Origin: Candidatus Saccharimonadota bacterium
GTDB taxonomy: Bacteria; Bacteroidota; Bacteroidia; Cytophagales; Amoebophilaceae
Length of the DNA stretch: 32,000 nucleotides
Direction of reading: 5' to 3'
Assembly (NCBI RefSeq): GCF_964030745.1
Contig: NZ_OZ034918.1
Location: 360,001 to 392,000, forward strand
Shown: piece by piece, positions 27,883 through 28,624 of the stretch
How positions within the stretch are numbered: position 1 is the first letter of the stretch
How the letters are laid out: every line of letters begins with the position of its first letter
Made by a program: the position numbers and the translations under genes
Notes under the pieces: generated by a model
Database searches by the model: none
Told to the model about the DNA's origin: nothing
The model's input: only the letters and a program-made list of their open reading frames with translations

Positions 27883-28624
27883 GCCACAAAAAGCTTTCCG
27901 CTGCCATGCGTAAGCCCATTTTAGACTTGCCCCGTGCCCTATTTACAAAGGTAATTGGTAATTCCACCAGCTTGGCACCATACTGATGTGCTAAGAATTT
28001 TATTTCTACCTGAAAACTGTAGCCTACAGCAGCTATAGACCTCTTTTGAGATGCAATTGCTAATGGCAATTTTGGTGTCGAAAGAGGTCTATGTAATATA
28101 TCTTCTAGTATGGCCCGCCGATAACAAACAAAACCAGCCGTAACATCTTTAATAGGCATAGCTGTAATAAACCGTGCAAGCCAATTGGCTAGGGAGGATA
28201 ATAAGATTCTAGAAAGGGGCCAATTGACCACACGCCCACCTGGAATGTAACGGGAGCCAATGACTATATCAACTGTAGGTGTAGCGCACATGGCCAAAAG
28301 TCGAGGCAAATCAGTAGGTGCATGGGAAAAATCAGCATCCATGCTGCAAATATAATCGTAACCATAAGCCAATGCCCAACCAAAACCTGCTAAATAGGCT
28401 CGACCCAACCCCTCTTTTTGAGGCCTGCTTAAAAGATGTAGTTGCTGGGGATAAGATTGCTGTAGCCTAATGACTACATCAGCTGTACCATCAGGAGAGT
28501 GATCATCTACTACTAAAACAGCTACGCCTATTTTTAATGCAAAAATAGCGGTCAATAAAGGCTCAATATTGTCCCGCTCATTATAAGTAGGTATCACCAC
28601 AATTGCACGAGAAAAGGCTGACAT
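27857..28624 (-). CDS. Family 2 glycosyltransferase, polyprenol-phosphate mannosyl/glucosyl-transferase-like, carrying an in-frame palindromic-element insertion
   Basis: VVIPTYNERDNIEPLL, LVVDDHSPDGT, CSMDADFSHAP, DVTAGFVCYRR, GYSFQVEIKF and FVNRARGKSKM are DPM1/GtrB-like motifs. The extra segment RPLSTPKLPLAIASQKRSI lies between the YRR and GYSFQ motifs. Confidence 0.85.
   Translation of the reverse strand: MSAFSRAIVVIPTYNERDNIEPLLTAIFALKIGVAVLVVDDHSPDGTADVVIRLQQSYPQQLHLLSRPQKEGLGRAYLAGFGWALAYGYDYICSMDADFSHAPTDLPRLLAMCATPTVDIVIGSRYIPGGRVVNWPLSRILLSSLANWLARFITAMPIKDVTAGFVCYRRAILEDILHRPLSTPKLPLAIASQKRSIAAVGYSFQVEIKFLAHQYGAKLVELPITFVNRARGKSKMGLRMAAESFLWLMQMRWKS
28036..28091 (-). repeat. 56-bp palindromic element, copy B (inside the GT2 gene)
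   Basis: The reverse strand reads TAGACCTCTTTCGACACCAAAATTGCCATTAGCAATTGCATCTCAAAAGAGGTCTA. It has 11-bp perfect inverted arms, TAGACCTCTTT / AAAGAGGTCTA. Confidence 0.9.

Follow-up and report, generated by a model that had tools for sequence, protein, structure and literature searches.

How the same short palindromic sequence comes to lie, in one reading frame, within unrelated proteins is the question raised by the 32-kb stretch of bacterial DNA analysed here (the window). Rickettsia palindromic elements (RPEs) are the textbook example of selfish DNA persisting within coding sequences. In the literature covered here they are described only from Rickettsia and Wolbachia, one having been published in frame in a Torix Rickettsia, and the same behaviour, in-frame insertion at tolerated exposed loops, has already been published for the Rickettsia elements. 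The GT2 protein encoded in the window is 100% identical to P0001, from the endosymbiotic Cardinium of Philonthus spinipes, a beetle, and the window belongs to this member of the Bacteroidota. We found no paper in the open-access literature that connects Cardinium with RPEs, which also go unmentioned in a 2025 review of Cardinium; as far as that literature extends, RPEs in Cardinium are flagged by automatic annotation only, NCBI already labelling the proteins P0123 and P0125 'RPE1 domain-containing'.

Results

Copies of the repeat in the window

The 23-nt core TTCGACACCAAAATTGCCATTAG is present exactly at 22720-22742 (+), 28060-28082 (-) and 30696-30718 (-) in the window, in agreement with the original observation of three exact copies, and is matched in none of 100 dinucleotide-preserving shuffles with up to 3 mismatches tolerated. 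The corresponding copies, A, B and C, each lie within an open reading frame (ORF), on the coding strand and in one common frame, as originally noted, and encode the peptides RPASTPKLPLEIVFRKRS in A, RPLSTPKLPLAIASQKRS in B and SPLSTPKLPLAIGFQKGG in C. Copy B, at 28036-28091 (-) in the GT2 gene, is a short 56-nt derivative of RPE-1 (nhmmer E = 1.7e-8, model positions 89-145). Its 11-nt arms, TAGACCTCTTT/AAAGAGGTCTA, are perfect, as originally described, an inner hairpin is formed by AATTGC/GCAATT, and the copy folds with -11.9 kcal/mol (z = -5.4). Copy C, a second short RPE-1 derivative, lies in rbfA at 30669-30727 (-) (nhmmer E = 9.8e-9); it measures 59 nt counting the flanking TA dinucleotides and adds 19 codons to the gene, NSPLSTPKLPLAIGFQKGG. 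Its right arm has degenerated to a G-run and its hairpin has a z of only -2.1, the features of a decayed copy.

Copy A as first delimited (22711-22766) is only the 3' third of a 146-nt element at 22621-22766 (+), a full-length RPE-1 of the Cardinium/Wolbachia type (nhmmer E = 4.5e-46) with the termini TAGACCTCTT...AAGAGGTCTA and a fold of -29.1 kcal/mol (z = -6.3). An nhmmer profile built from long copies detected a fourth copy, D, which the first reading had missed. This diverged full-length RPE-1 occupies ∼2246-2388 (-) in the rplW-rplB spacer (profile match at 2249-2385, E = 5.6e-23, covering model positions 2-140), with a broken reading frame and a decayed right terminus. Two further family copies are present elsewhere in the source genome, in LptE (P0199) and in P0234.

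Relationship to RPE-1

The translation of copy A matches the NCBIfam model TIGR01045, "RPE1", with 32.7 bits (E = 5.2e-8) against a curated cutoff of 30, the Cardinium ORF P0125 scores 35.3 bits, and the model covers the GT2 insert of Oedothorax over profile positions 1-46 of 48. Copies B and C alone are too short to score on TIGR01045 and are tied to RPE1 via copy A. In a DNA-level comparison that took in one Wolbachia locus and one Rickettsia copy, copy A aligns gap-free over 146 nt with the copy of Wolbachia wCfeT at 79% identity and with the RPE-1 of R. asiatica (L014:3417-3562) at 66% identity. The termini TAGACCTCTT/AAGAGGTCTA are identical in copy A and R. asiatica, those of the Wolbachia copy departing from them at two or three bases. 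Because the curated model is passed, the gap-free identity of 66-79% extends over all 146 nt and the termini are alike, the relationship is one of homology, and the original view of a Bacteroidota family merely analogous to RPEs is not sustained. Copy D is 72% identical to the R. asiatica element, with one 1-nt gap, vs ∼60% to the Cardinium/Wolbachia type and, judged by its sequence, is closer to the Rickettsia type.

The anatomy likewise corresponds to RPE-1, described as an imperfect palindrome of ∼100-150 bp, at 146 nt here; the host, Cardinium, lies outside the Rickettsiales range described for that family. Like a MITE, the element is small, ends in inverted repeats and carries no transposase gene, for which 146 nt leave no room. 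We assign a probability of roughly 85% to the interpretation that copies A-D are members of the RPE-1 family, a non-autonomous, MITE-like selfish palindrome resident in the genome of Cardinium (Bacteroidota).

A profile of the Cardinium peptide matched 120 representative proteins among 1.84 billion (E <= 1e-3), many of them long proteins in which the insert is internal; such peptide-profile searches detect only the translated frame. Name look-ups of 20 of the 120 returned the Cardinium of D. farinae and of P. spinipes (including the LptE of the latter), Wolbachia (wCfeT, wCori, the Wolbachia of Cantharis cryptica and a MAG), Candidatus Tisiphia, Rickettsia asiatica/helvetica proteins annotated RPE1 and one entry filed under the aphid Cinara cedri. 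A word-indexed protein search with the peptide profile gave only 8 candidates and missed known carriers, and a scan of metagenomes returned a single Wolbachia-type copy besides two chance matches. Copy A had no match in a plasmid collection, and the element matched neither viral contigs nor any Rfam family.

The centre of the Rickettsia type has a further resemblance. The central ∼55 nt of copy D (2290-2345) and of the R. asiatica RPE-1 are ∼80-85% identical, short gaps being allowed, to a low-copy, palindromic, intergenic enterobacterial repeat found in the E. coli rlmL-ycbX spacer and in Salmonella (L019:130-190, L018:150-210), with z values of 10-23 against shuffles in pairwise alignment. 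Judged by the ERIC primer sequences, this repeat looks ERIC-like. It was not detected by the nhmmer model, in which Cardinium copies are dominant.

Long and short forms of the element

The boundaries of the element were defined by comparison with other Cardinium. Positions 22626-22760 are 78.5% identical at the DNA level, over 135 nt, to the GT2 insert of the Oedothorax gibbosus Cardinium, and eight further Cardinium loci (from Nabis limbatus, O. gibbosus and cBcalN2) have the same sharp boundaries, TAGACCTCTT...AAGAGGTCTA, within unrelated flanks. One of the eight interrupts a murF-alr fusion ORF in frame, and others are located at gene ends. Copy A and the murF-alr copy of Nabis measure 146 nt, four intergenic Nabis copies 144 nt. 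Read directly from the sequence, copy A contains an internal direct repeat, TAGACCAGCTTCGACACC, at 22711-22728 (+), which repeats the left terminus at 22621-22638 (TAGACCTCTTGCGAGACC) exactly 90 nt downstream. The short form equals the long form minus these 90 nt, or 30 codons in frame (146 - 90 = 56 nt), and keeps both termini and arms despite the loss between the direct repeats; copies B and C have TAGACCTCTTTCGACACC at their left junction. On sequence grounds, the 56-nt unit originally taken for the element is thus a deletion derivative of the full 146-nt unit.

Perfect terminal inverted-repeat arms extend over 10-23 nt across the copies, the full 146-nt unit having terminal inverted repeats of 10-16 nt, and hairpin z-scores range from -5.4 to -8.0 except in the decayed copy C, with the long forms between -6.3 and -8.0. 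Arm pairing was counted directly in each copy, instead of from a MAFFT alignment, because in the latter the 1-nt indels of the 144-nt copies were pushed to the 3' end. The arms vary between copies yet do so in step, positions 11-16 being GCATAA, TCGAAA, CGGAAA or GCAAAA on both arms and the cBcalN2 copy having AAAACCTGCTGC on both. Since both arms change together, pairing itself is preserved, beyond the sequence. Within Cardinium, copies differ by 12-24%. Four copies in the Cardinium of Nabis limbatus (L009-L012) are near-identical, each 144 nt long with perfect 16-nt arms and located directly at gene ends, one upstream of mrp/apbC and another providing nfo with its last codons and stop codon; this set has the look of a recent burst, specific to the lineage, of a variant whose length would not keep the triplet register.

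Host genes, insertion sites and reading frame

Copy B is carried by an NCBI-annotated polyprenol monophosphomannose synthase of 255 aa (GT2, PF00535) at 27857-28624 (-), the ORF of which is intact with every invariant residue retained. Copy C is carried by rbfA, encoding 30S ribosome-binding factor A, at 30484-30888 (-) (NCBI 134 aa; TIGR00082, 54.3 bits), within an ORF that extends over 30484-30921 (-). RbfA contains a clean 19-residue insert here that is absent in 14 orthologues from Cardinium and outgroups. In GT2, one site is affected across a Cardinium clade, the insert being long in Oedothorax (∼50 aa), where it resembles the peptide upstream of copy A, short in Philonthus and decayed in Sogatella and cByot. 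It is absent in Nabis, cBcal and others, as well as in C. hertigii, cCpun, the Tipula symbiont, Amoebophilus and free-living Bacteroidota. Absence of the insert from the 14 RbfA orthologues and from the GT2 outgroups supports the predicted selfish palindromic element, inserted in frame in both genes, and the same peptide was not encountered in distant orthologues, a finding that would have contradicted insertion. The inserts are lineage-specific, as expected; that of RbfA is private to one of 15 orthologues, and that of GT2, present at the same site in several Cardinium lineages, is not private to this genome. In a single-gene NJ tree filled and empty GT2 alleles are interleaved, a patchy pattern that a single old insertion, with later deletions or exchange of alleles, could explain instead of ongoing transposition.

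The empty GT2 site reads TTGAATATAGCT and the filled site ..CATAGACC...GGTCTATAGCT, that is, TTG AAT ATA GCT in the empty vs TTA CAT AGA CC...GG TCT ATA GCT in the filled allele. Relative to the empty orthologous site the short form has a net gain of 54 nt, a multiple of three, and the long form would add 144 nt, also a multiple of three. This pair of alleles fits duplication of a TA target or, equally, a TA that is part of the inverted repeat, and the TA model also suits the RbfA site, for which orthologue peptides imply an ancestral ..CA TA AC... The empty GT2 alleles within the insert-bearing Cardinium clade (L015:1001-1717, L017:1001-1714 and L016:1001-1735) all encode IL-N-IASVGY, which lacks two residues relative to the ancestral version, IL-LQR-IASVGY, seen in C. 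hertigii and outgroups. The TA target was either generated by a 6-nt deletion that preceded insertion, or the alleles are products of excision.

By six-frame stop counts, the long form is stop-free in two frames, +1, which is the frame of the RPE1 peptide, and one reverse frame, while in the short copy B +1 is the sole stop-free frame. GT2 and RbfA both carry the element in its +1 frame, and the GT2, RbfA and murF-alr ORFs remain intact with the in-frame insert. In the AlphaFold2 model of GT2 (mean pLDDT 86.7) the insert is coil between two helices, with pLDDT < 50 at residues 181-194. In that of RbfA (mean pLDDT 80.7) the insert, residues 54-72, is coil between a strand and a helix, with pLDDT < 50 at residues 58-65. 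Both inserts are therefore predicted by the models to lie in disordered, exposed loops, the location anticipated for them. It had been suggested that surviving copies are filtered for one translatable frame or for tolerance in surface loops; the single stop-free frame of the short form fits this filter, and frame and loop placement together support it.

Surroundings of copy A and other features of the window

The ORF around copy A, 22505-22891, lies between gldN (21721-22542) and an IS5-family element. It is not a credible host gene and copy A is effectively intergenic; of the three ORF hosts initially proposed, GT2 and RbfA stand as real genes and this one does not. Here NCBI annotates only an 80-aa CDS (22649-22891, +), which starts inside copy A and takes its name, 'palindromic element RPE1 domain-containing protein', from the RPE1 model; P0123 is 98.75% identical over 22649-22888. 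This reading frame was probably generated by the element and is unlikely to be a host gene. The IS5-family insertion sequence, at 22875-24181 about 100 nt downstream of copy A, encodes a transposase (DDE_Tnp_1 + DUF772) at 23002-24036 and has 17-nt inverted ends, TGAGGCCGTTGCAATAG / CTATCACAACGGCCTCA. It was rejected as the parent of RPE-1, its ends being unrelated to those of the RPE; this comparison yielded neither a transposase nor a parent IS whose ends match.

The window also contains dispersed repeats that are unrelated to RPE-1: 190 nt at 7796-7985 and 26489-26678 (95% identity), 72 nt in three copies at 7920-7991, 24631-24702 and 26613-26684 (88-89%) and 101 nt at 5111-5211 and 7640-7740 (95%). 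The N-terminus of P0234, the RPE1-containing ORF elsewhere in the genome, matches 7920-7985. Two paralogous Ala-rich ORFs of 390 and 376 aa, at 24773-25945 and 26752-27882 (+), have no Pfam match and have in common repeated 5' regions as well as periodic GCT-rich repeats in their interior; repeats upstream of them lie at 24736-24885 and 26046-26137/26771-26825. A perfect tandem repeat at 7404-7451 consists of four copies of the 12-nt unit AGTTTAATTAGG, and a tmRNA gene is located at 8122-8581 (-) (Rfam RF00023, 122 bits). Outside the window, a 494-aa ORF on an ENA contig, P0149, contains a Cardinium-type RPE-1 at residues 285-333 which, by our reading, connects an N-terminal part resembling the membrane glycosyltransferase ArnT with a C-terminal part resembling NusB. 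The ORF may be a fusion of two genes across the element or an artefact of read-through.

Discussion

Origin and maintenance of the insertions

The behaviour of the element could be accounted for by three steps. Integration would occur at a TA dinucleotide with duplication of the TA, which suggests a cut-and-paste transposase supplied in trans. Insertions in other frames, in other orientations or in structured regions would be purged, with the result that the survivors look 'designed' for translation. Finally, RPE-1 would have reached Cardinium by horizontal transfer from Rickettsiales symbionts in shared arthropod hosts, possibly more than once since two subfamilies coexist in the window. In-frame RPE-1 copies in Cardinium housekeeping genes suggest such transfer between co-resident symbionts. 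The strongest form of this proposal, that RPE-1 is an active TA-targeting cut-and-paste element crossing phyla (Rickettsia, Tisiphia, Wolbachia and Cardinium) and perhaps tied through the Rickettsia-type core to ERIC-like repeats, is speculative and we consider it rather doubtful.

The principal alternative is that RPE-1 is now immobile in Cardinium, its distribution resulting from a few ancient insertions or transfers followed by vertical descent, recurrent deletion through the hairpin or the repeats and recombination among strains. This has a substantial chance of being correct, short of even, as no cognate transposase was found, Cardinium copies have diverged by 12-24%, decayed copies are many (C, D, Sogatella and cByot), the 90-nt deletion is flanked by direct repeats and could recur independently, and the GT2 tree mixes filled with empty alleles. 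Against it stand the RbfA insertion, private to one lineage, the four near-identical Nabis copies with perfect 16-nt arms, which point to a recent burst, and the 'empty' GT2 alleles, which match exactly the expected pre-insertion sequence. Co-option of the hairpins as RNA or DNA signals, for example in mRNA stability or processing, would be in keeping with the position of copy D in the transcribed rplW-rplB spacer of a ribosomal-protein operon, with Nabis copies immediately 5' or 3' of genes and with co-varying arms that keep pairing. We regard it as improbable, because such co-variation is equally expected if mobility needs the palindrome, the decay of copies C and D speaks against constraint, and Rfam has no matching family.

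Two explanations would remove the element from the RPE-1 family or from mobile DNA altogether. A hairpin born in Cardinium could have converged on RPEs, given that palindromes under translational constraint could arrive at similar peptides and that Cardinium is phylogenetically remote from Rickettsiales. Convergence is very unlikely to have also produced the same 146-nt length, the termini identical to those of R. asiatica and the gap-free DNA identity of 66-79%; the curated RPE1 model is passed, and the sequence types form a continuum over Cardinium, Wolbachia, Tisiphia and Rickettsia. We give still less credence to the proposal that the peptide is a native functional segment, a linker or motif, of its host proteins, which the in-frame position and intact host ORFs might suggest. 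The same DNA, with inverted-repeat ends, occurs in unrelated proteins and in intergenic spacers, is missing from orthologues and is disordered in the models. The preferred interpretation thus remains an RPE-1 family resident in Cardinium.

Exchange of insertion sequences among Cardinium, Wolbachia and Rickettsia has already been proposed in the literature, and RPE-1 in Cardinium is a non-IS addition to this known traffic in mobile DNA. Occurrence of two subtypes in a Bacteroidota symbiont, some copies being in housekeeping genes, means that the element crosses phyla, and the Cardinium copies offer a comparative handle on the mechanism by which RPEs are mobilised. If the active cross-phylum element proposed above were confirmed, its patchy distribution would make the 25-year-old question of RPE mobility testable, with genes tracking the element, and if the tie to ERIC-like repeats were real, RPEs would be one branch of a much wider superfamily of palindromic elements. 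There are also consequences for annotation, as PGAP names small ORFs made by the element 'RPE1 domain' proteins and RPE-1 inserts cause length variation among Cardinium orthologues.

Comparison with known systems

ERIC-like repeats and other bacterial MITEs resemble the element in being imperfect palindromes of ∼130-150 bp, some of them intragenic. However, the likeness of the ERIC-like repeat is confined to the centre of the Rickettsia type, and none is seen for the Cardinium/Wolbachia subtype. MITECca01/02 of Cardinium cOegibbosus (Halter et al. 2022) is likewise a small non-autonomous inverted-repeat element. MITECca01 was rejected as the identity of the repeat, there being no sequence relation: it is ∼240 bp, derived from IS982 (ISCca4), reported in cOegib only and mostly intergenic or disruptive (Halter et al. 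2022), in contrast to the in-frame, translated RPE-1.

The nearest type, at 79% DNA identity, is that of Wolbachia (wCfeT, wCori and the symbiont of Cantharis cryptica) and Candidatus Tisiphia. The RPE-1-like peptide of these copies, NRLLSKPIYGEKFLGEAQASTTEY..STTKLPLEIE, is likewise in frame, inside nuclease, RuvX and ankyrin proteins, although their hosts belong to another phylum than Cardinium. The published 'Wolbachia palindromic elements' (WPEs, Ogata 2005) have been tied by one paper to RPE-4/6/7, not to RPE-1.

Rickettsia RPE-1 (Ogata et al. 2000; TIGR01045) shares with the elements described here a length of 146 nt, a long imperfect palindrome, the termini TAGACCTCTT/AAGAGGTCTA, 66-72% DNA identity to copies A and D, a common translated frame and peptide (..TAAY..ST.KLPLE..RKRS) and a location in frame in housekeeping genes at predicted exposed loops, in addition to intergenic copies. 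It differs in that its hosts are Rickettsiales and not Cardinium (Bacteroidota), in that the dominant Cardinium subtype is nearer a Wolbachia variant than the classical Rickettsia copies and in the 56-nt deletion derivative that occupies two genes here. The Cardinium host is therefore new in the distribution of the element, not in its anatomy.
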